This document shows positions 1 through 31,217 of a DNA stretch of 31,217 bases, one piece after another. The position numbers and the translations under genes were made by a program. A model generated the notes under the pieces. The model was given only the letters and a program-made list of their open reading frames with translations. It was not told the DNA's origin and ran no database searches. How positions within the stretch are numbered: the first letter of the stretch is position 1; every line of letters begins with the position of its first letter. Origin of the DNA: a virus (lineage: Duplodnaviria; Heunggongvirae; Uroviricota; Caudoviricetes); the IMG/VR virus record IMGVR_UViG_2698536549_000026; one strand, given 5' to 3'.

Positions 1-1674
1 CTATTCGATTATTGGTGAATATTTATTTTTAAGCTGGCGGCACTCCTGAGCGACCTGGCTGAACTGTGCGGCCTGCGGAGACGTGCCCGTTTTGGGGTGG
101 GTATGTGATGCTGTAATATCGGCCAGCTCTTCCACCACATCGGCAAGGTCCGTCAGCATGGTCAGTACATTAATGCCCTCGTTTCCCAGCTTCACCGTAT
201 CGCCAACCAGCTTCTGCGCCAGCGCAATACTGTGACGGACGCCCTTAATCTTTTCGGTAAGGCTGCCGCCCACGGTGTCCAGGGTGTCGCCTTCCACGTC
301 GCGCTCACAGGTACCGGCAACCACCATCATGTGTCCGCCCGTGCTGATGCTGTAGCTCTCTTCAGTGATATGGGTGACCGCGCCAGCCTGAAGCGTGGAT
401 ACGCCCAGGACGGTGGTTGTGTCGGTTGCCTGTATGGTGGTCTCCCGGCTGGTCAGGCTCCGCGTTTCCTCGTCTGCGCTCACCACGCGCTCGCGTGATG
501 TCTCCTGTATCCGCTGGTCTGTCTGGCGCACCCAGTCTCCGGCGACCGTCACGCGCTGCGATACGCCGTCGCGCTGTTGCTGCAACTGCTCGCCCGGCTT
601 CACGTCGGGCAGATTGTGGCCCTCTGCCATTATCTGGCGGATGAAGGGCTTATCCGCCCGGCCTTCCACAAATCCCACTTCCACCAGGGTTCCGGGCGGC
701 GGGAACTGGAACATGCCGGACTCACTGCCCGCCATGGGAACGGGGAGGGGAACGGCGTTATAAACGGGCGTATCCGCTGCCGGGTTGCCGTTCTCGTCAA
801 GCAGCTGGAGATTCACCGCGTAGCGGGGTCTGAACGGGTCGGCAATATTGCCCGCGCTGACGGCTTCGGTCGGCGCCTCAACACGTGCCAGTTTGGGCAG
901 GTGAAGCCCTGATGCCAGTTCAGGGAAGGCCTTTTCAGCCTGGCGACGGAAAGGGGACTTCTGGAGGGGAGCGCCGGTGGCTTTATTGCGCGGTGTCCAC
1001 GTGATGGTCATGTTGTCATCTTCCAGCATGACCATCGTCAGGCGCTGACCGTTCACCTCCACACCCGGTCGCAGCGTCTGAATCATCGGGAGGGTCATAC
1101 TGTGCCCGCCCGTTGATGCCTGGCTGAACTCGTGCGGGATGGTGACGGGGCGACCGGAAAACATCCCCTGCGCGGCAGCAGCGGCCATAATGCCGCCGTC
1201 CGGTAACGGATGCCAGATGTAATCCGGTACGGAGAAAATACGCCCCAGACTGGCCAGCAGTTCGTAGCCCGTGCCGCTGTGTGTGAAATGCGGAACGGGT
1301 CTGTCAGTGTAAGCCGCGTTGTCCGGCAGGATGATTTCCAGCCCGCTGGTCTCACTCAGCCACTGTGTGACCGTGCGCATTGTCGGGTGCTGAAATGAAC
1401 AGGGGAAGGGGTGATCAAGGATCCCCGCCATTTCACGAATCAGAAGCCGCACCGAGCCGTTTTCAGCGGGCTGGCTGCGTTCAACGTATCCGGTAAACCA
1501 GCGCACCAGGTCGTTTCCGTATCCGATATCGAGACGAACGGGGCGCCCGGTGTAGTTCTGCTCTGTTCTGGCCGTGATAAATCCGCGTCCGCACGCGTTC
1601 AGCTCAAGCATGACGGAACAACTGACCAGCTGAATGGTGTCGTTACCCAGTAACAGACGTTTAGTGGGGTTCAT
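1..1674 (-). CDS. phage tail/baseplate protein, possibly hub-spike-like; last late gene in the window
   Basis: 557-aa ORF, stop TAG at 1-3 on minus strand, co-oriented with tail operon. Central motif FQFPPPGTLVEVGFVEGRADKPFIRQI resembles the OB-fold signature of gp5/gpV/VgrG-type spikes. Family not verifiable by eye. Confidence 0.4.
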   Translation of the reverse strand: MNPTKRLLLGNDTIQLVSCSVMLELNACGRGFITARTEQNYTGRPVRLDIGYGNDLVRWFTGYVERSQPAENGSVRLLIREMAGILDHPFPCSFQHPTMRTVTQWLSETSGLEIILPDNAAYTDRPVPHFTHSGTGYELLASLGRIFSVPDYIWHPLPDGGIMAAAAAQGMFSGRPVTIPHEFSQASTGGHSMTLPMIQTLRPGVEVNGQRLTMVMLEDDNMTITWTPRNKATGAPLQKSPFRRQAEKAFPELASGLHLPKLARVEAPTEAVSAGNIADPFRPRYAVNLQLLDENGNPAADTPVYNAVPLPVPMAGSESGMFQFPPPGTLVEVGFVEGRADKPFIRQIMAEGHNLPDVKPGEQLQQQRDGVSQRVTVAGDWVRQTDQRIQETSRERVVSADEETRSLTSRETTIQATDTTTVLGVSTLQAGAVTHITEESYSISTGGHMMVVAGTCERDVEGDTLDTVGGSLTEKIKGVRHSIALAQKLVGDTVKLGNEGINVLTMLTDLADVVEELADITASHTHPKTGTSPQAAQFSQVAQECRQLKNKYSPIIE

Positions 1675-1676
1675 GG

Positions 1677-2219
1677 TTACTCCAGTGCATCATTGACGGG
1701 TTTGAGGACCTTTTCTTCGAACCAGGTCATTTTCTCCGGTGTTTCGTCGGCCACGGTCCCGCCTTTTGCGCCGGGCGTCTGCGGCGTCTGTTTACGGCTG
1801 CTGGCGGGGGTGGCGCGTGCCTGGCGTTTTTCCGGTACGCTTCGTCTTTCGCGTAATGTGAAGCTGACCTGCCAGGCGAGGCGGTCGGTCTGCTGCTGTG
1901 CGTCTATCTGCCCGGAAAATGTCCCTTCACGAAAGTTAATGGCGGCAGCGGTGGCGTTTGCGATACGGTAAACTTTCAGGGCACCGTCCCCGGTGGTGGC
2001 AGAGGCCAGCTGGAAAATGCGCTGAAGGGCCCGCTCATTGTCAAAGGTGATCATCCCGGTTACGCGAAGCTCTTTGGCCTTGATGCCCTGCTCGGCGTTC
2101 GCGGTGCTCGATGTCTGGCCGGACTGGTCCTTTTCCTGGAACTGCATCGAGGGCGAAATCACCATGTTCTGCATGAAAATACCCTCACCATCAAGGGCGA
2201 GCAGTGCGGTCTGGCTCAT
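1677..2219 (-). CDS. hypothetical phage protein, tail-associated by position
   Basis: 180-aa ORF between tail fibre assembly gene and the 557-aa tail protein, same strand. Start uncertain (29-nt overlap with upstream ORF; internal Met possible). No recognisable motif. Confidence 0.35.
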   Translation of the reverse strand: MSQTALLALDGEGIFMQNMVISPSMQFQEKDQSGQTSSTANAEQGIKAKELRVTGMITFDNERALQRIFQLASATTGDGALKVYRIANATAAAINFREGTFSGQIDAQQQTDRLAWQVSFTLRERRSVPEKRQARATPASSRKQTPQTPGAKGGTVADETPEKMTWFEEKVLKPVNDALE

Positions 2220-2916
2220 GGATCATTTTCCCCAGTTCAGTTAATGAGTCTGCCGCCAGGAGTGCGGCAACGGTATGTACGGCGGTCGGTGCCGGGATAT
2301 CCTTCACCATGGCCGCCGCTGCGGCGCGGTGATACCCCCGGTACTGAAATACCCAGGCCTGCGCCTTCTGTTCTGCCAGTGTTCTGATCCCCTCTTCCAG
2401 TCCGGCAAGTGCGCCAGCCCGTCTGCTGATAAAGCGGCTTATCTGGCGGCGAAGCCCTGCGGCATCCGGGCGTTGTGCTGCCAGCTGCCTGGCCTGTGCT
2501 GCACGGGCGGCACTGACTGCGCTGCGTATTGTGGAAACGGAAAGATGCACAGGTGCGGGCAGGGTGTCGGTGGTGATCGGGATTTGCATTTTGTCAGTGC
2601 TCAGACTGGCGGCAGCCTGCGCCATGCGCTGTGCCTGCGTGAATACCGGCACGGGCAGAACGGCGGTCAGTGCCGCCATTGACTGTATAAAAAGATCGTG
2701 GGTGTTTTCGGCAATCATGATAATGGTCACGTCGCCGGATGCACGGCTTCCGGCCATTTTCCCGGCCAGCCAGTTTATGGCGTTCGGAGGGCTTAAATAT
2801 ACCCCCGATTCTTCATATCGTCCCAGCCCGTAAGTCCACGGTGTGACGGGGATGACGGAACAGCTCAGCGGGGGCATGTCAGCGCTGACGCTGATTGTTT
2901 TTCTTGTCCACGTCAT
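2191..2916 (-). CDS. hypothetical protein immediately downstream of tail fibre assembly gene
   Basis: 241-aa ORF. ATG at 2916 preceded by GGAGG (revcomp of 2919-2926), 12 nt after the tfa stop. Ala-rich C-terminal half. No recognisable family. Confidence 0.4.
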   Translation of the reverse strand: MTWTRKTISVSADMPPLSCSVIPVTPWTYGLGRYEESGVYLSPPNAINWLAGKMAGSRASGDVTIIMIAENTHDLFIQSMAALTAVLPVPVFTQAQRMAQAAASLSTDKMQIPITTDTLPAPVHLSVSTIRSAVSAARAAQARQLAAQRPDAAGLRRQISRFISRRAGALAGLEEGIRTLAEQKAQAWVFQYRGYHRAAAAAMVKDIPAPTAVHTVAALLAADSLTELGKMIHEPDRTARP

Positions 2917-10794: not shown

Positions 10795-11129
10795 TTCACC
10801 CCGTTGTGCTCAAGGCTGAAATGATTGCCGTCTGCCCGGCTGAAGCGTCCGCCCCATGTGCCGCCGATGGATTCCCAGTATTCCCCCAGCGGCCTGTAGG
10901 CGTCGGTATCGGCCTGGTATTCGCCGTTAATGAACAGGTTGAAGTCCACCGCGAGGCGCAGCGTGTGAAGGCTGTTGCGAATGCCTTTTCCGCTTTTCGC
11001 ATTCAGTGCGGCCTGCTCCGGCGTGCGGTATGCCTCGCCGAAGGTCAGGCGATAGCCGTGCTCCTGTGCCCAGTGGATGAGATCGGCAATCATGACGGCA
11101 AACAGTTGTTGTTTTTCGCTCAGTTTCAT
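10791..11129 (-). CDS. endolysin, peptidase M15-type (L-alanyl-D-glutamate peptidase-like)
   Basis: 112 aa, MKLSEKQQLFAVMIADLIHWAQEHGYRLTFGEAYRTPEQAALNAKSGKGIRNSLHTLRLAVDFNLF...GGRFSRADGNHFSLEH. Matches the small M15 endolysin pattern (H...D...H metal ligands) from memory. Confidence 0.75.
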   Translation of the reverse strand: MKLSEKQQLFAVMIADLIHWAQEHGYRLTFGEAYRTPEQAALNAKSGKGIRNSLHTLRLAVDFNLFINGEYQADTDAYRPLGEYWESIGGTWGGRFSRADGNHFSLEHNGVK

Positions 11130-11881
11130 CAGTCACTCCTCTGTTCCGTCCCCGTAAGACGCGCCTGTGCCACGCTGAAATAGTGGGCGTTCAGTTCAAT
11201 ACCCGTAAAACGGCAGCCCCGGCGAAGGGCGGCCACGCCCGTGGTGCCGGACCCCATAAACGGATCGAGGATCAGCCCTCCGGGTTCACACACGCGCACA
11301 AGCTCATCCATCAACGATTCCGGTTTACCTGTCGGGTGCTGTTTCTCCTGTGGGCGTGTGTGGTGCGTGATGCAGCCGTCGAACGGCCCGGAAGGGGATT
11401 TGCCCAGCGCGCCTTTACTGCCCCAGACCACATATTCGCACTGGTGACGAAAATAACCGGTATGCGGTGTTCTTGAGGCCCGTCCCTTGTTCCATGCCAC
11501 GATCCCCCGCCAGTTAAAGCCGGCGGCCTGGAATGCGTCCGTCAGCGCGGGCAACTGCCGCCAGTCGGTGAAGACCAGGGCGTAACCACCGGGTCGTACC
11601 GTGCGCCATGCCTGTGTCATCCACAGATGCGTCCAGTATTCCCATGAACGGGCGTCCATGTTCTCGCCTTCGAAGCCTTCAAAGCGGTGAAGATCTTCAT
11701 CGTTGATGTATTTGGCGTGGCTGCCCTGGCATGTCCGCCCCGCCTTGTGTGTGGCACCTGAACTGTATGGCGGGTCTGTGATGAGCGCGTCCACACTGTT
11801 TTCCGGCAGCATCCGCAGAACGTCATGCGCCTGCGCGTGATACAGGCTCAGGGAAGGCGAAATGTAAGGCTTATGGGTCAT
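11129..11881 (-). CDS. DNA methyltransferase, beta-class amino-MTase (N6-adenine or N4-cytosine)
   Basis: 250 aa. Catalytic DPPY motif near N-terminus (ALITDPPYSS), AdoMet-binding FxGxG motif near C-terminus (LDPFMGSGTTGVAA). Motif IV before motif I indicates the beta permutation. No adjacent restriction endonuclease gene. Confidence 0.85.
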   Translation of the reverse strand: MTHKPYISPSLSLYHAQAHDVLRMLPENSVDALITDPPYSSGATHKAGRTCQGSHAKYINDEDLHRFEGFEGENMDARSWEYWTHLWMTQAWRTVRPGGYALVFTDWRQLPALTDAFQAAGFNWRGIVAWNKGRASRTPHTGYFRHQCEYVVWGSKGALGKSPSGPFDGCITHHTRPQEKQHPTGKPESLMDELVRVCEPGGLILDPFMGSGTTGVAALRRGCRFTGIELNAHYFSVAQARLTGTEQRSD

Positions 11882-20336: not shown

Positions 20337-21385
20337 GCAAGAAACGCAGAAACAAAACGTCACGCGTGACGAAAAAAGCATTCACGCCCGCACGTGGCAG
20401 CACAATCACGTTTGGTCAGCCGGAACCGGTGCTGACCACCGGCACGGACTACCATAACATCTGGTATGACAACGAACACAACCACTGGCAGCTGCCGATT
20501 AACCGCCTGGCACTGGCGCAGCTCCCGAACCTTAACGCCCAGCACGGTGGGGTGCTGTATGCCCGCCGTAACATGGTGGCGGGGGGCTATACCGGTGGTG
20601 GCCTCACAACGGACCAGATGGAACAGGCGGTATTTGACTACCTGTTGTTCGGCGATCTCGCCCTGCTCAAGGTGCGTAACGTATTCGGCGACGTCGTGGC
20701 ACTTGAGCCGCTTCCGTCGCTGTATCTCCGGCGCCGCAAAACCGGTGAGTTCGTGGTGCTTCAGGAAGGCCCCGCGCTGGTCTATACGCCGGAAGATATT
20801 ATCTTTCTGCGGATGTATGATCCGCGTCAGCAAATTTACGGGCTGCCGGATTATATCGGTGGCATTCACTCGGCGCTGCTGAACAGCGAGGCCAGCCTTT
20901 TTCGTCGCCGTTACTACAACAACGGGGCGCATATGGGGTTTTTGCTGTATACGAACGACCCGGGGATCACCACGGAGATGGAGGATGAGATCCGCGAGAA
21001 GGTGGCGGAGTCTAAGGGGCTGGGAAATTTCCGCAATCTGTACATCAACATCCCCAAAGGTTCGCCGGATGGGGTGAAAATTATTCCGATTGGTGAGGTG
21101 AGCGCCAAGGATGAATTTTCAAACATCAAGGGGATCAGCGCCCAGGATGTGTTTACGGCACACCGCTTTCCTGCCGGTCTTGCGGGGATCATCCCCACGA
21201 ACGGGGCCACCATCCCTAACCCGGAAACGACGCGTGAAACGTACCGCAAGGATGAGGTGATACCGCTTCAGCGTAAAATCATGAACTCCGTGAACAGCGA
21301 TCCCGATATACCGGAACACCTTTATCTTCGTTTTGATGCAGACGCCGGGCATGTGGCGGAAGAAAAAGTGGTGCCGGTCGGGTAA
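20333..21385 (+). CDS. Q: portal protein, P2 gpQ family
   Basis: ORF track gives 20312..21385. ATG at 20333 (MSKKRRNKTSR...) forms an ATGA overlap with the P stop. Size about 350 aa and position fit gpQ. Confidence 0.9.
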   Translation: MSKKRRNKTSRVTKKAFTPARGSTITFGQPEPVLTTGTDYHNIWYDNEHNHWQLPINRLALAQLPNLNAQHGGVLYARRNMVAGGYTGGGLTTDQMEQAVFDYLLFGDLALLKVRNVFGDVVALEPLPSLYLRRRKTGEFVVLQEGPALVYTPEDIIFLRMYDPRQQIYGLPDYIGGIHSALLNSEASLFRRRYYNNGAHMGFLLYTNDPGITTEMEDEIREKVAESKGLGNFRNLYINIPKGSPDGVKIIPIGEVSAKDEFSNIKGISAQDVFTAHRFPAGLAGIIPTNGATIPNPETTRETYRKDEVIPLQRKIMNSVNSDPDIPEHLYLRFDADAGHVAEEKVVPVG

Positions 21386-21422
21386 AATGTCCTCCCCGGG
21401 ATACACGTTATCGGGAGGTAAG

Positions 21423-21686
21423 ATGCGGATTTTTAAAGCCCGGTGTCCGGACTGTGGCGCACCTGCTGTCATCCGGAAGACAGACTGGAAAACCCCTGAA
21501 CTTGCGGATCTGTACTGTGCATGCAGTGATGTCGAATGCGGGCATACCTTCGTCTGTACGATGACCTTTTCCCATACCCTCAGCCCCGGCGCCCGCTCCG
21601 GTCGCAATATGGTGAAGTTTCTTGTTGATGCCATGTGCCCGGAAGATCGCCGGTATGCGCTTGAACTACTGTCGCGGCGTTCCTGA
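21423..21686 (+). CDS. ogr: Ogr/Delta-family zinc-finger late transcription activator
   Basis: 87 aa from ATG at 21423 (GGAGG 8 nt upstream). MRIFKARCPDCGAPAVIRKTDWKTPELADLYCACSDVECGHTF carries the C-x2-C-x22-C-x4-C spacing diagnostic of Ogr. Confidence 0.85.
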   Translation: MRIFKARCPDCGAPAVIRKTDWKTPELADLYCACSDVECGHTFVCTMTFSHTLSPGARSGRNMVKFLVDAMCPEDRRYALELLSRRS

Positions 21687-21712
21687 CGCGCTTCGCTTGT
21701 CTGCTGCTTCGC

Positions 21713-21737
21713 CGGGGCAAAAAGAATTTTTGCCCCG
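21713..21737. terminator. perfect 11-bp inverted repeat (CGGGGCAAAAA-gaa-TTTTTGCCCCG) between convergent ogr and early operon
   Basis: Read directly. Sits in the 65-bp gap between two convergent transcription units. No clean U-tract on either side, so terminator function is inferred only. Confidence 0.35.
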
Positions 21738-21751
21738 ACTCACCAGCTCCT

Positions 21752-22078
21752 TTAACGGAATGCAGCGCCGTAGATAAACAGAATTCGCTTCATGATTTCG
21801 CTGCGCTTGCAGGCTTCGATGACTGATTTTTCCTGCTGCTGTTCAGCCCGTTGCGCCAGTTCCTGTCGTTCCTTTTCCGTTGGCTTCCGGTAATGCGTTA
21901 TCTTGTCCGTGTACCCGTCCACAACCAGCAACCCTTCCCGTACCATTTTTCCGGCGGCCTGATTAATGACGGTTCTTTTCACGCCCAGTTTTTCTACCAG
22001 TTCTGGGGCGCTGAAACGTGCGTGCGTTTCCAGGTAGCGTAAAATGATTTCCTTTCCGGTCATTCCTGGGGTCTTCAT
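21752..22078 (-). CDS. small winged-helix-like DNA-binding protein, last gene of the early operon
   Basis: ORF track gives 21752..22147. ATG at 22078 has AGGAG upstream and an ATGA overlap with the preceding gene, giving 108 aa. Segment KEIILRYLETHARFSAPELVEKLGVKRTVINQAAGKMVREGLLVV looks like a winged HTH. Confidence 0.5.
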   Translation of the reverse strand: MKTPGMTGKEIILRYLETHARFSAPELVEKLGVKRTVINQAAGKMVREGLLVVDGYTDKITHYRKPTEKERQELAQRAEQQQEKSVIEACKRSEIMKRILFIYGAAFR

Positions 22079-22245
22079 TTGGCGGCTCCTTCGTTGTTCC
22101 GGCGTTCCCGGAGTTCGGTCAGTGCTGCCAGTAAATTCTCCCACCATGTTTCTTCCACGACCGGGTTTTGTCGTGAAAGCAGCTGCTGCGCCGACTCAAT
22201 CATTTTCGTAAGCTCTCTGTCGCTGATCCTCCTGGTGCTGTTCAT
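22075..22245 (-). CDS. small hypothetical protein (about 57 aa)
   Basis: ORF track gives 22075..22284. In-frame ATG at 22245 has AAGGAG 7 nt upstream. Charged, helical-looking. No recognisable family. Confidence 0.4.
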   Translation of the reverse strand: MNSTRRISDRELTKMIESAQQLLSRQNPVVEETWWENLLAALTELRERRNNEGAAK

Positions 22246-22293
22246 GGTGCGCTCCTTTAGTTGGCTGTTTCTGGTTATGTTCATGGTCTTTGT

Positions 22294-22698
22294 TTACCTG
22301 CGTGATTGTCTGCCAGCGGCTGAATGCACATAGCGGGCAATTGCCGCTTTGCGGTTAATCGATGCCAGTGTTCTGGTCAGTTCTGCGTTGTGTTTGTGTG
22401 CCTGCTCTTCGTGGTACTGCCGCATGATTTTTCCGGCAGGCGTGAGCGGCTCCGGCTCTCCGGGCGGACGGCGCGGACGAACGGCGACAAGCCAGCTGCG
22501 GTTGGTGCTGTCCGGTCGTCCGTTGAGTATGTCGGTGATGATGGCCGTGGTGGTGCGATCGGGACTGACGACCGTGATTTCCAGCTCATCGCCCGGTTGT
22601 GGCCCCGTGGCAATGTTGTTCAGGGTCAGTAAGGGCGTGCGCTGGCGCATCATTTCGTCAAAACGCTGGCGCTGCATGGCGCAATAAAAGCGGGTCAT
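22294..22698 (-). CDS. hypothetical protein translationally coupled to replication gene A
   Basis: 134 aa. ATG overlaps the A stop (ATGA at 22695-22698) with GGAGG 8 nt upstream. No recognisable motif. Confidence 0.5.
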   Translation of the reverse strand: MTRFYCAMQRQRFDEMMRQRTPLLTLNNIATGPQPGDELEITVVSPDRTTTAIITDILNGRPDSTNRSWLVAVRPRRPPGEPEPLTPAGKIMRQYHEEQAHKHNAELTRTLASINRKAAIARYVHSAAGRQSRR

Positions 22699-25223
22699 TG
22701 TGGCGCCTCCGTATTCGGTGCGGGGGTGATATCAATGCGGCGGGTGCTGTCATTCCAGTACGCGGTGCGTCCGTCAGCCAGGCGCACGCGGGCACCGTGA
22801 CGGACGGAAACGACGGCGCTTTCATGCAGCTGCACGCCCAGCGCATCAAGCTCGCGGGTGATTTGTGCGGTGATGTGTGGCTCAGCGGTCAGTGCGACAC
22901 TCACGCGAACGCCGCCAGCGGACGCACTGATGCCGCCGTTTTTCACGGTTTCCGTGTCAGGTTGCGGGTTTTTCAACTGCCTGGTGAGTTGTTTTCGCTC
23001 TGTGGGGGTCAGTGACCTTAACCATTCACCCAAATCACCTTCCGGCAGGGTAAGTCGCTGCTCCCTGCGTCCGTCCGGCTGCCTTTCTGGCGGGTCGTTT
23101 ATGGTCAGATTCTGGTCAGGGGGACAGTTATTGCCACGAGTCCAAGGTGCGGCAAAGCCGCACTCAACGTCAAAACCCTCGTCCGTGCGGTCTTCGTTTT
23201 CCGGCTTACGTCTGACCAGTTTCCAGGTGTCCGGGTGGGTGCATATGGTGTAGCGCTCCCCGAGTGACGGGGCGCGGACGCCGTAAATGCGTTGCGGGAA
23301 TTCGCCGTAGTCGTTGGCCTCTTCGGCAGTTTCGTATGCGGTGCGGACCAGGTACGTGTTGCGGGGAATGAGCACACCACCCTGGCGGGTGATATAGGTG
23401 GCAAAACATCCCACGTCGGCGGCGGCCAGTATGGCGTCAATGTCGTCATGGTCCAGACGCTGCGGGGCAGCCGGGTTACGGGCCATTTGCCCGGCAAGAC
23501 GGCGGAGTTCGCGCCATACCTGGCGGGGAGGGATACCGAAGAACTGGAACTGGTGGATGCGGTGAAGGCCTGCCCAGCCGATGGCGTTCTCCACGGTTTC
23601 GGCCATGGTTTTGCCTGATTCCTTATCGACGTAAGGTTTGCCGGTTTTCGGGTCATTCCCCATGAAGGTGCTGGCGTCCAGGTTCTTACCGATATAGGTC
23701 GCGATATAGCTTGTCGGTGTGCCTTTTGCCGGGTCGATTTTTTTGCATTTAAAACGCGGGGAGATATCATCACCCAGCTCTGCGCGGTCCTCCCTGATGG
23801 CGGCGTTGCGCATGATTTCAGTGATACGGGCTTCGTTTTCCTGGCTGGTGAATACCAGCATGTGCCAGTGCGGTGTACCGTCGTGGTGGGGCTCCACGGT
23901 GCGCACGCCGTACCAGCCCAGCCCGGCCTTGTCGATGGCCCTGCGGACGGCGGCGAAAAAGCGGTAAACCAGATAATCACTGGCATCGCGTACCGTTGCT
24001 CCGCAGTATTTCGGGTTCAGGCTGCCGTCATCGTTCACGCTGTGAAAACGGGAAGGGGCTGTGACGGTGACGAAAAACGCCACGTCGCCGCGTGCTTCGG
24101 CGACCTGCTCCATTCCCCGGGCGCAGGTCATCATCTCGTTACGGCGGTTACGCGGATTAGAGAGACCTGCCCAGTAGATATCCTCAAGGCTGAACCGTTC
24201 TCCCTCTTCGTTCTCGATGTCCCAGGCCTTCAGAAAATCGCGGGTGCGCTGGCGTTTTTCGCGCCAGTCCAGTAACGCTTCATGGCTGATATATACCGAT
24301 GTCTTACGTGACACCAGACCTGCGGCGCGTAACAGTTCTTCACGCCAGATGTCCCGGAGGTGTCTTAACTGACTGTTCCACCATGTCGCACAGGAAAGGC
24401 GCATGACCGCACCCGGCACCCGTTCCGGGTCGGGGTCGGTGCGGCGGTCGGGCCTGATTTCCAGCGACGGCCAGCAGGGTGGCGTGATACCCAGTTTTAA
24501 CGCCATGTGTGCCAGTGGCTGGTAGGTCAGTAACCAGGTGAGCAGGTCATCGTCACCCCTGCCGGTCTTTTCGATGACTTCATCACATGCGCGCTCCAGT
24601 GCGGTGGAAAACGCGGTGGCGGTCAGGGTGGCAAGGCGCTGGATTTCGTCACGGCTCAGCTGTGGCAGCATAAGCAGTTCATCCAGCCGTTTGCGCGCGG
24701 CGGTGGCCTTAAAGGCCGGGGTGGCAAAGCGTTCATTCACACGGGCGATACGTTTCAGGCGGGCACGCAGCCCGTGACGAACGAAGTTATCCGCCGCATA
24801 TGCGCTGTTATTCTTAAGCCCTTCCCGGCGTGCGCTCTCCTGTTTGCGGCTCAGGCGCGCCAGGTCACGGATGAGCGGACCGGCAAGAAACGGCGGCAGG
24901 GCGCGCAGCTCTGCCATGGCTTCAGATACCAGTGTTGGCGGATTCTCGTGTTTGTGCCGCGCCAGTTTTTCCAGCCTGATCCGACGCTCTTCGTCGTGGT
25001 AAAGATGCGAATTAATTCGCTTCCCTTCGTCTGTGGTTGTCAGGAAGGCGACGGTTTCTTCATCCAGTCTGGCGTCAGTGCGAATATCCTCGTTGATGTA
25101 GCTCTGAATGGCCTGGCGTAATGCGGTTGGCTGCGCTCTGCCGAACGTTTCAGGATCGATAACCGGTAGCGGGGCGTTCCACGGGTACGCCAGTTGTGCA
25201 TTATGGTCGCTCATGCGTCGCAC
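22695..25223 (-). CDS. A: replication initiation protein (P2 gpA family rolling-circle endonuclease)
   Basis: 842 aa. Contains HUH-type motif (TPHWHMLVF) and catalytic-tyrosine region (TSYIATYIGKNLD) characteristic of the P2 A family. Confidence 0.9.
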   Translation of the reverse strand: MRRMSDHNAQLAYPWNAPLPVIDPETFGRAQPTALRQAIQSYINEDIRTDARLDEETVAFLTTTDEGKRINSHLYHDEERRIRLEKLARHKHENPPTLVSEAMAELRALPPFLAGPLIRDLARLSRKQESARREGLKNNSAYAADNFVRHGLRARLKRIARVNERFATPAFKATAARKRLDELLMLPQLSRDEIQRLATLTATAFSTALERACDEVIEKTGRGDDDLLTWLLTYQPLAHMALKLGITPPCWPSLEIRPDRRTDPDPERVPGAVMRLSCATWWNSQLRHLRDIWREELLRAAGLVSRKTSVYISHEALLDWREKRQRTRDFLKAWDIENEEGERFSLEDIYWAGLSNPRNRRNEMMTCARGMEQVAEARGDVAFFVTVTAPSRFHSVNDDGSLNPKYCGATVRDASDYLVYRFFAAVRRAIDKAGLGWYGVRTVEPHHDGTPHWHMLVFTSQENEARITEIMRNAAIREDRAELGDDISPRFKCKKIDPAKGTPTSYIATYIGKNLDASTFMGNDPKTGKPYVDKESGKTMAETVENAIGWAGLHRIHQFQFFGIPPRQVWRELRRLAGQMARNPAAPQRLDHDDIDAILAAADVGCFATYITRQGGVLIPRNTYLVRTAYETAEEANDYGEFPQRIYGVRAPSLGERYTICTHPDTWKLVRRKPENEDRTDEGFDVECGFAAPWTRGNNCPPDQNLTINDPPERQPDGRREQRLTLPEGDLGEWLRSLTPTERKQLTRQLKNPQPDTETVKNGGISASAGGVRVSVALTAEPHITAQITRELDALGVQLHESAVVSVRHGARVRLADGRTAYWNDSTRRIDITPAPNTEAPQ

Positions 25224-25695: not shown

Positions 25696-25923
25696 TTAGT
25701 GGTGGTGTTGCTGGTTGATAAGGTCCTGCAGTTCTGCCAGGTCTTCGGCCAGATAGCTGAAGACTGCCGCGTAATACCCGGCAGCGATACCATCGTTAAG
25801 TCGATGTAATGCGTTTGACTGCATGATGAAGGTGACAGATGCAGCCCGATGGAGTCTGCGGTTAATTTCAGTGCGGATGTGAAGACGCTCAGCGCGGGCG
25901 CGCTGTTGTTTGCGGTTTGCCAT
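25696..25923 (-). CDS. hypothetical small basic protein
   Basis: 75 aa. ATG at 25923 has AAGAGG upstream. Arg-rich N-terminus, ends in HHH. Confidence 0.4.
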   Translation of the reverse strand: MANRKQQRARAERLHIRTEINRRLHRAASVTFIMQSNALHRLNDGIAAGYYAAVFSYLAEDLAELQDLINQQHHH

Positions 25924-25999
25924 GGTGTTTGGCCTCTTGTAGTAAGTTCTGAAAACTCACCAACCCGAGGTTCCAAGCTCAGGGTGGCGAGACGTACAG

Positions 26000-26152
26000 G
26001 GTTGGAACTACCGGCTACAAGAGATCCCGGCCCGACCGAAGTCGGCCCCGTACGCCCCGCCATAATTCTGACGCGAAAAAGACGTGGCGATACAGTACGC
26101 ACAAAAAAACCGCTGGCGCGGTTGTGCGCTCTTGTAGTCGGCGGGGTTCCAA
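26000..26152. repeat. inverted repeats of a two-part motif (CTCTTGTAG-N6/7-GGTTCCAA) flanking about 105 bp, with a third partial direct copy at 25934-25976
   Basis: 26002-26023 TTGGAACTACCGGCTACAAGAG is the reverse complement of a near-copy of 26129-26152 CTCTTGTAGTCGGCGGGGTTCCAA. Both half-motifs recur at 25934-25942 and 25969-25976. Lies in a 320-bp non-coding gap. Confidence 0.6.
26102..26123 (-). terminator. intrinsic terminator-like hairpin on the minus strand inside the early operon
   Basis: Minus-strand sequence AACCGC-GCCA-GCGGTT followed by TTTTTTT (revcomp of 26102-26123). Downstream of the 184-aa gene, upstream of the 75-aa/138-aa/A genes. Confidence 0.5.
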
Positions 26153-26243
26153 TCCCGGCACCCGTTTTATGAGGTGCGGGAAAACTGTAACCCGACCAGG
26201 CGAACGCTGGCAAGCGGTTTTTTTGTGTGTGCATGATGATCAC

Positions 26244-30221: not shown

Positions 30222-31217
30222 ATGTCGATTAAGAAGCTCGCTGATGGCAAATACTGTGTGGACGTGCGGCCTGCTGGATCTGAAGGAAGAAGATTTCGGC
30301 GGCGATTTCCTACCCGTGGTGAAGCGGCGATGTATGAACGCCATGTTCTGACGCATTATCACGATAAGGACTGGGTCGAAAAACCTATTGAACGTAAAGC
30401 GTTAAGCGATCTTCTGGAACTGTGGTGGGTGTACCACGGTAAGAATCATCGTTATGGCGCGATGAATCGGGTCAGAATTGAAGCGGTTCTTCGTGATATG
30501 CAAGAGCTTGGTATTAACAGAAGTGACCACTTAACCCGAAAAAATATTATCAGATATCGCCTTGAATTAATGAATCGCGGAATTAAGCAGTCAACGGTAA
30601 ATCGTTATTGTGCAATGATGAGCGGTTTCTTTGAAAAGCTGATTGATGTTGAAGAGTTTGTGGGTGATAACCCGTTTCACGAGATACGCAAGCTAACAAT
30701 TAATCAGCCGGAAATGGCTTATCTTGCACATGATGATATTCCCAGGCTAACCGCACTTTTATCTGGCGATAATCTTAAGGCTGTATTGTTAAGCTTGGCT
30801 ACAGGCGGGCGCTGGGGTGAAGTTGCCAATATTAAAGGTGAACACATAATTGGTGGGAAGGTTATTTTCATGGAGACAAAGAATGGATCGCGGCGGGTTA
30901 TTCCTATAGCTAAAGATCTTGAATCTCTGATTAAAGTCAAAGCGACGGGAAGATTAATGAACCCCAGTTATGCGATAGTCAGAAGTGCAATAAGGACTGT
31001 GCGGCCTGATTTACCAGTCGGTCAGTCTGTGCATGTTTTACGGCACACATTCGCAACTCATTTCATGATTAATGGAGGGAACATTATTACCCTTCAGCGT
31101 ATTTTAGGGCACAGCACAATTCAGCAGACAATGACCTATGCGCACTTTGCACCTGATTATCTCCAGGACGCGGTAAGGTTCAATCCGGTTGCGGAGTTGT
31201 CCAGATTTTGCCCATAA
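30222..31217 (+). CDS. int: tyrosine integrase (P2 Int family)
   Basis: ORF track gives 30186..31217 from a GTG. ATG at 30222 gives about 331 aa. C-terminal catalytic region HVLRHTFATHFMINGGNIITLQRILGHSTIQQTMTYAHFAP with conserved R...HxxR...Y. Stop at 31215-31217, so attP/attR lies just beyond the window. Confidence 0.9.
   Translation: MSIKKLADGKYCVDVRPAGSEGRRFRRRFPTRGEAAMYERHVLTHYHDKDWVEKPIERKALSDLLELWWVYHGKNHRYGAMNRVRIEAVLRDMQELGINRSDHLTRKNIIRYRLELMNRGIKQSTVNRYCAMMSGFFEKLIDVEEFVGDNPFHEIRKLTINQPEMAYLAHDDIPRLTALLSGDNLKAVLLSLATGGRWGEVANIKGEHIIGGKVIFMETKNGSRRVIPIAKDLESLIKVKATGRLMNPSYAIVRSAIRTVRPDLPVGQSVHVLRHTFATHFMINGGNIITLQRILGHSTIQQTMTYAHFAPDYLQDAVRFNPVAELSRFCP

Follow-up and report, generated by a model that had tools for sequence, protein, structure and literature searches.

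The three-gene block downstream of replication gene A

The stretch of DNA considered here, hereafter the window, is the 31,217-nucleotide virus record IMGVR_UViG_2698536549_000026, a complete P2-like prophage (~31 kb) of Escherichia coli. In the window, replication gene A (22695–25223, minus strand), a member of the open reading frame (ORF) list that encodes a Phage_GPA-type replication endonuclease of 839–842 amino acids (aa), is followed on the same strand by three small genes, g1 (22294–22698), g2 (22075–22245), and g3 (21752–22078), which are the subject of this report. A 99.8%-identical copy of the prophage, locus L001, adjoins dmsA in E. coli 2013C-3033, and window coordinates equal L001 coordinates plus 1599. 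In L001, PGAP (NCBI's genome annotation) also predicts g1, g2, and g3, and names A “replication endonuclease”; the Pfam model Phage_GPA matches the A homologs of two further loci (L012 and L041).

A first interpretation of the window made from its letters alone (the sequence-only reading) had described three minus-strand genes between A and a convergent ogr-Q unit, each with a strong Shine–Dalgarno site and two with ATGA overlaps. The ORF list and the PGAP annotation bear out both the genes and the convergent unit, and the sequence itself bears out the translation signals: GGAGG precedes g1, AAGGAG precedes g2, and GAAGGAG precedes g3, in each case 7 nt upstream of the ATG. The stop codon of A and the start of g1 overlap in an ATGA at 22698–22695, and the stop of g2 and the start of g3 overlap in the same manner, while g1 and g2 are separated by a 48-nt gap without overlap. 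The sizes first given for the products of g1 and g3 (134 and 108 aa) are correct; that of g2, put at about 57 aa, is 56 aa from the ATG at 22245, or 69 aa from an upstream in-frame ATG at 22284 that has no good Shine–Dalgarno site. Comparison with four to six relatives yields dN/dS values of 0.09–0.49 for g1, 0.17–0.48 for g2, and 0.18–0.26 for g3, a signature of purifying selection which indicates that all three are real coding genes; conserved homologs also exist for each, which sets the genes apart from chance ORFs.

A consensus scan found no sigma-70-like promoter on either strand of 21300–23300, nor did it find one within A on the minus strand. A search for LexA boxes, made to test for an SOS-responsive unit like that of phage 186, returned no more sites than chance would give, and none of them in the interval. 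No enzymatic or effector domain was found in g1, g2, or g3 with Pfam and NCBIfam; for g1 and g2, these databases and PADLOC returned nothing meaningful, while the PADLOC matches of g3 were weak winged-helix matches only (E 1.6e-4 to 9e-3). Neither g1 nor g2 had a tblastn match among 50,697 deposited phage genomes.

The middle gene, g2, encodes an orphan small protein. It is matched by PHROG 14672, a family of unknown function (3e-32), and its own family comprises 75 clusters that are confined to E. coli and no less than 76% identical. Divergent relatives begin the gene at a more upstream codon, with products of 64–66 aa; the first 8–13 residues vary, and conservation sets in at RRISDREL (core sequence RRISDRELxKMIESAQQLLSRxNPVVEETWWENLLAALTELRER).

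The third gene belongs to the lambda Ren family

By sequence comparison, g3 is a full-length member of the lambda Ren family. PHROG 142 (“Ren-like exclusion protein”) matches it at 6.3e-29 over profile positions 9–111 of 116, BLASTP aligns its residues 6–104 (from M6) with residues 1–93 of lambda Ren at 42% identity (7e-27), and tblastn against lambda ren gives 41% identity over 95% of the query. The same kind of search recovered 159 phage records that contain lambda ren or one of its lambdoid relatives, at 33–52% identity; none of the 159 is P2-like, and we thus found no Ren homolog in deposited P2-like phage genomes. Members from P2-type prophages, lambda, and Klebsiella phages share the invariant residues T7, G8, Y15, L16, T18, H19, T36, and I38-N-Q-A-A42 (T-x-INQAA), as well as the C-terminal pattern C-x-x-S-x-x-M-K-R-x-L-x-x-Y-G. 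Relative to lambda Ren, g3 has five extra N-terminal residues and a six-residue insertion; its M1 is invariant among relatives, and the internal M6 is not.

The structure model of g3 places a helix–strand–helix–helix–wing arrangement at residues 8–64 (pLDDT 85–91), followed by low-confidence helices, and the predicted protein is a minimal winged helix-turn-helix with a conserved C-terminal helical tail. The winged helix that had been suspected in the last gene is thus recovered by Pfam as well as by the model; a PDB sequence search yielded only a weak match to the winged helix of LrpA. The name “MarR family” that PGAP gives to g3 is, by contrast, too specific. A winged helix-turn-helix is common to both, but MarR proteins are ~140–150 aa long and carry N- and C-terminal dimerization helices, whereas g3, at 108 aa and with its winged helix beginning at residue 8, is ~40 residues shorter and lacks them. 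The Pfam MarR_2 score (E 9e-6; 26.2 bits) also falls below the gathering cut-off of 27 bits, and for both reasons we regard the name as overstated.

The PGAP name nevertheless raises the possibility that g3 is a conventional DNA-binding transcription regulator that tunes phage development, for example at the early-to-late switch or at the ogr unit, with g1 and g2 as unrelated passengers. The sub-threshold MarR_2 match and the missing dimerization helices speak against this, as does the search for an inverted-repeat operator near g3, which found none apart from the hairpin of the probable cos site described below. Near-identical prophages do without g3, which is therefore not needed for development; in lambda, ren is likewise dispensable for the P-lethality and replicative-killing phenotypes that have been studied (PMC3640518). 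We consider a regulator of this kind unlikely.

The genetic setting of g3 resembles that of ren. Lambda ren is transcribed from pR together with O and P (PMC3640518), and in lambda, Klebsiella phage RCIP0098, and IdasGreatGrand the ren start overlaps the stop codon of the last replication gene; g3, too, is the most distal gene of a replication operon and starts on an ATGA-type overlap. Yet lambda is a lambdoid phage that replicates with O and P, while the P2-like phage that carries g3 has a rolling-circle A protein. That the two genes share their place in the operon speaks for a target of Ren that is general to phage replication, and against one specific to O or P. The occurrence of a Ren homolog in a P2-like phage with another replication mechanism also means that the residues conserved across both contexts can serve as a short list for mutagenesis.

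In a scan of genome contigs for Ren relatives, most of the contigs returned (among L015–L030) carry a Ren match to g3 at the 42% identity of lambda ren. These contigs come from assemblies of unrelated species, namely Pseudomonas, Shewanella, Oceanobacillus, Bradyrhizobium, and others, and four of them are 48.4–48.5 kb long, which looks like lambda contamination of public assemblies. As these contigs were taken to be such contamination, the scan is uninformative on the gene context of Ren.

The first gene and the P2 orf91 slot

Unlike g3, which can be replaced, g1 belongs to the backbone of this A lineage: its start overlaps the end of A in all the loci inspected, namely L002–L007, L012 (at 55% identity), and the most divergent, the metagenomic L041. 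In P2 itself, the corresponding position is held by orf91, which starts at 30316, four nucleotides inside the end of A at 30319, and of which g1 is the positional counterpart. The Orf91 protein (L013, 2817–3146) is listed as “unknown” in comparative tables, and is assigned by Pfam to DUF3850 and ASCH (1e-16 and 2e-10); its DUF3850 family is represented in 460 deposited phage genomes, where its surroundings vary. The g1 family is far narrower, with 35 clusters among 5.8 billion proteins, all of them from E. coli, and three representatives at 50% identity among 1.84 billion proteins in an exhaustive profile search. Four other remote matches (E 5e-6 to 3e-4) were rejected as short stretches within unrelated long proteins, and a PDB sequence search with g1 returned nothing.

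In the best AlphaFold2 model of g1 (pLDDT 81.9), a five-stranded barrel with one helix (residues 3–75) is joined to a long basic helix (87–133), and the predicted fold matches ASCH/EVE/YTH proteins and phage DUF3850 proteins. The model thus predicts a PUA-like beta-barrel of the ASCH/DUF3850-like kind, and the combination of a PUA-type barrel with a basic helix suggests that g1 is probably a nucleic acid-binding protein. What g1 and Orf91 have in common is therefore the slot after A, a start that overlaps the A stop, and a predicted fold class. We do not claim homology between them: hhalign brings F-D, G-D-x-L, and I-T-D into register at a non-significant probability, and neither g1 nor any of the 23 family members matches PF04266 or PF12961 at E values up to 10. 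Orf91 has the ASCH signature G-x-K-x-x-E-x-R in the form GKKRAEFR, with K23, E26, and R28 invariant in the DUF3850 alignment, whereas the aligned segment of g1 reads QRTPLLTL; the long basic C-terminal helix of g1 has no equivalent in Orf91. The two cases suggest that a small, A-coupled, PUA-like protein recurs in P2-like phages, albeit in two lineages only.

Conservation and exchange in the A-to-cos interval

Of 5,426 complete E. coli genomes, 67 contain DNA resembling g1, and 38 contain g2 together with g3. The window, L002, L007, and L012 retain the gene order A-g1-g2-g3 across a divergence of A that reaches dS ~0.8. Elsewhere, the position of g1 remains constant and the genes behind it vary: g2 is kept in L003 and L004, and other small coupled genes follow g1 in L005, L006, and L041. 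The small genes that replace g2 or g3 in these relatives have no Pfam domain, and their PHROG matches are to families of unknown function only. Constant synteny throughout the relatives and homologs of known function had been named beforehand as signs that would speak against a variable accessory module; the comparison bears these signs out in part, with a synteny that is constant for g1 and frequent for g2 and g3, and a named homolog for g3.

In L002 and L007, ~2 kb of additional genes separate g3 from the cos-like block. Those of L002 are an SSB gene, a DUF4760 gene, and a 167-aa gene; those of L007 are a TumE/HVO_A0114 toxin–antitoxin pair preceded by a promoter-like site (TTGATA-16-TATGAT, 10 of 12 matches with an extended -10), and TumE with HVO_A0114 is also found in L041. 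The presence of such pairs at this locus, together with small, overlapping genes that include one helix-turn-helix protein, would be in keeping with g1–g3 being a toxin–antitoxin or abortive-infection cassette in which g3, g2, or both are antitoxin and g1 is toxin. We think this highly improbable: no member matches a toxin family in Pfam, NCBIfam, or PADLOC, an autoregulated promoter was not found, and the persistence of g1 without g2 or g3 in L005, L006, and L041 would be lethal if g1 were an unneutralized toxin.

The probable cos site and the cargo slot

Thirteen nucleotides past the g3 stop begins a 13-bp hairpin, GUCGGGGCAAAAA-UUC-UUUUUGCCCCGGC (21711–21739), which faces the transcripts of g3 and of the ogr-like gene alike. 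The RNA fold of 21680–21760 has an energy of −36.8 kcal/mol (z −4.9); the hairpin has no trailing U run, and the terminator scan did not call it. It forms part of a block of ~70 nt (21683–21750) that is invariant across divergent relatives, being kept in the window, L002, L003, L005, L007, and phage P88 while the flanks differ, and that is probably the cos site. The layout is similar to that of P2 cosR, where the hairpin is followed by GGCGAGGCGGGGAAAGCAC; in the window it is followed by GGCGAAGCAGCAGACAAGC (21713–21695, minus strand), a candidate 19-nt cohesive end. A distant DNA search with the block matched P88-type phages only, and not P2, 186, or P4, and for this reason the assignment rests on layout and conservation. 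The actual cargo slot of these prophages is the space from g3 to cos. With the g3 stop only 13 nt before the hairpin, that slot is empty in the window.

Position within a defense hotspot

The cos-proximal interval from gpA to gpQ has been described as a defense hotspot (Rousset et al. 2022, PMC9122126), and the g1–g3 block lies within it, adjoining cos. The sequence-only reading had noted this much, together with the placement of tin/old in P2 and of tum in 186, and on these points it agrees with PMC9122126 and with the P2 and 186 records. It went on to propose that the block may be an undescribed small regulatory or exclusion module. This holds in that g3 is exchangeable and that its only characterized relative, Ren, belongs to exclusion biology; it fails as to “undescribed”, as g3 is a member of a known family. 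The accompanying suggestion of a variable cargo module of the tin/old type finds no support in the comparison with relatives: g1 overlaps A in each one examined, and the block differs from tin/old in strand, promoter, coupling, and conservation.

The P2 tin and old genes are expressed in the lysogen. They occupy the A-to-portal interval by cos, as g1–g3 do; of the latter, g3 is swapped among close relatives, while g1 keeps its position. One could thus suppose that g1–g3 are a superinfection-exclusion or defense module, expressed by the prophage to protect its host and functionally like tin/old; many genes of unknown function at such loci proved defensive in tests, though the loci tested were those of P4 (PMC13586616). 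The “exclusion protein” label of the PHROG that matches g3, and the exchange of g3 with part of g2 among near-identical prophages, might be taken in the same sense. But the P2 genes are encoded on the other strand, with a mapped transcript start of their own, whereas g1–g3 run codirectionally with A, are coupled to this replication gene, with g1 invariably linked to it, and have neither a promoter-like site, nor a defense-model match for g1 and g2, nor an enzymatic or effector domain in any member. Moreover, the cargo that does bear a promoter-like site in relatives is distal to g3, and Ren is said to counter exclusion and not to cause it. Taken together, these points make a host-protecting module decidedly unlikely.

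The comparison with 186 leads in a similar direction. There, tum and orf97 also lie after A and before cos, but under a p95 promoter with a LexA site, and they include DinI-like Tum proteins to which the proteins of the window are unrelated; at the corresponding position, the window has neither a LexA box nor a promoter-like site. The PGAP accessions of the g1–g3 proteins are absent from those parts of the supplements to Rousset et al. (2022) that were searched. Hotspot surveys count every gene between gpA and gpQ as hotspot content (PMC9122126, PMC13586616), and the window offers a caution for automated surveys of this kind: its gpA–gpQ genes are better described as an operon tail, next to a cargo slot that contains nothing.

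A probable distal tail of the A transcription unit

The reading we favor, with moderate confidence, is that g1–g3 are the lytic-cycle distal tail of the A transcription unit, and not a cassette of the tin/old type expressed by the prophage. We infer that the three genes are cotranscribed with A and expressed in lytic growth only; they would then be made together with A through translational coupling. In this scheme g3 would act like lambda Ren, keeping phage replication from triggering, or from being stopped by, an abortive system of the Rex type in resident lambdoid prophages, or else would assist replication in some other way, and g2 would be a small orphan partner. By analogy with lambda, the chance that g3 protects or assists phage replication in cells with Rex-type systems seems to us a little short of even. 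Classical genetics is the source of the anti-Rex role: Toothman and Herskowitz reportedly found in 1980 that lambda ren mutants are sensitive to Rex exclusion, so that Ren would shield its own phage and not exclude others. More recently, Ren–Rex protein contacts have been observed in a two-hybrid assay, and ren has been called “likely involved in DNA replication” (Thomason et al., bioRxiv 10.1101/2021.04.19.439022).

Several observations weigh against this account. The anti-Rex role is drawn from classical genetics, and literature searches on how Ren works turned up no more than passing mentions. In lambda, ren abuts P, whereas g1 and g2 stand between A and g3 in the window. The near-identical prophages L003 and L004 match the flanks of the window at 98% identity and differ from it in this region only by a replaced segment (21749/21767–22099) that covers g3 together with the final 25 nt of g2, where they have small genes of other kinds instead (54 and 72 aa, or 54 and 187 aa); g2 and g3 are also missing from about half of the g1-bearing prophages. 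Both genes are thus dispensable and in part cargo-like. Between the window and the L002 type, g2 and g3 are 91–93% identical and g1 only 68–74%, a contrast which indicates that g2 and g3 have been exchanged as a pair by recombination. Weak promoters, and those of other than sigma-70 type, escape consensus promoter scans. As to g1, the fold comes from one confident AlphaFold2 model of five, the other four having pLDDT values of 53–60, and hhalign of the g1 family against Orf91, alone and with a seven-member DUF3850 alignment, gave a probability of 0.2–0.3%.

A more far-reaching variant would make the block an A-coupled counter-defense island, in which g3 interferes with the activation of Rex-like abortive systems of co-resident lambdoid prophages, either by masking the activating replication intermediate or by binding the activating sensor, and g1, like Orf91, binds a nucleic acid or modified-base signal of rolling-circle replication. 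Were this so, the function of Ren would be independent of the mode of replication, and the whole post-A slot of Peduoviridae would have an anti-defense role. We consider such an island doubtful. To a specialist, the findings on g1–g3 may not be very surprising.

Other features of the prophage

The plus strand of the window carries structural genes, then capsid genes, and then the P-Q-ogr unit; the minus strand carries a cox-like gene, the A operon, and g1–g3; and repressor-like and integrase genes on the plus strand come last. Upstream of A, all on the minus strand, lie an isrK Hfq-binding small RNA (26103–26177; Rfam gathering-level match, 69 bits), and a C4 antisense RNA (25980–26067; likewise gathering-level, 83 bits), closely followed by a “Derepression”-family gene, a 138-aa ORF, and A; the interval 25696–25923 on that strand is noted alongside them. 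A promoter-like site at 26213–26184 ends 7 nt 5′ of isrK, and a terminator-like hairpin (26123–26108) lies at the isrK 3′ end. The presence of isrK, C4, and a derepression-family gene ahead of A fits an A operon whose expression is regulated rather than constitutive, and RNA-based immunity or antirepressor control may be exerted over it.

The convergent P-Q-ogr unit ends in a gene for an ogr/Delta-like zinc-finger late activator (21423–21686, plus strand; L001 19824–20087), whose ORF holds the motif CPDCG...CSDVECGH. This gene stands immediately behind the portal gene and ahead of cos, an arrangement that is shared by L003, L004, and L006 and that is not seen in L002, L005, L007, or P88. In P2, ogr is located near att, unlike the gene of the window.

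No recognized defense system appears among the PGAP product names or among those genes of the prophage, a part of the whole, that were scanned with PADLOC. The left end (1–2916, minus strand) contains three genes annotated as “hypothetical”, one of which encodes a 180-aa product that corresponds to the HP1 ORF34 baseplate protein (4e-54); the three have no PADLOC match, and as far as tested are not defense cargo. Within the lysis cassette, with a holin gene and an M15 peptidase gene on either side, lies a DNA methyltransferase gene (~11129–11881, minus strand; L001 9530–10282).

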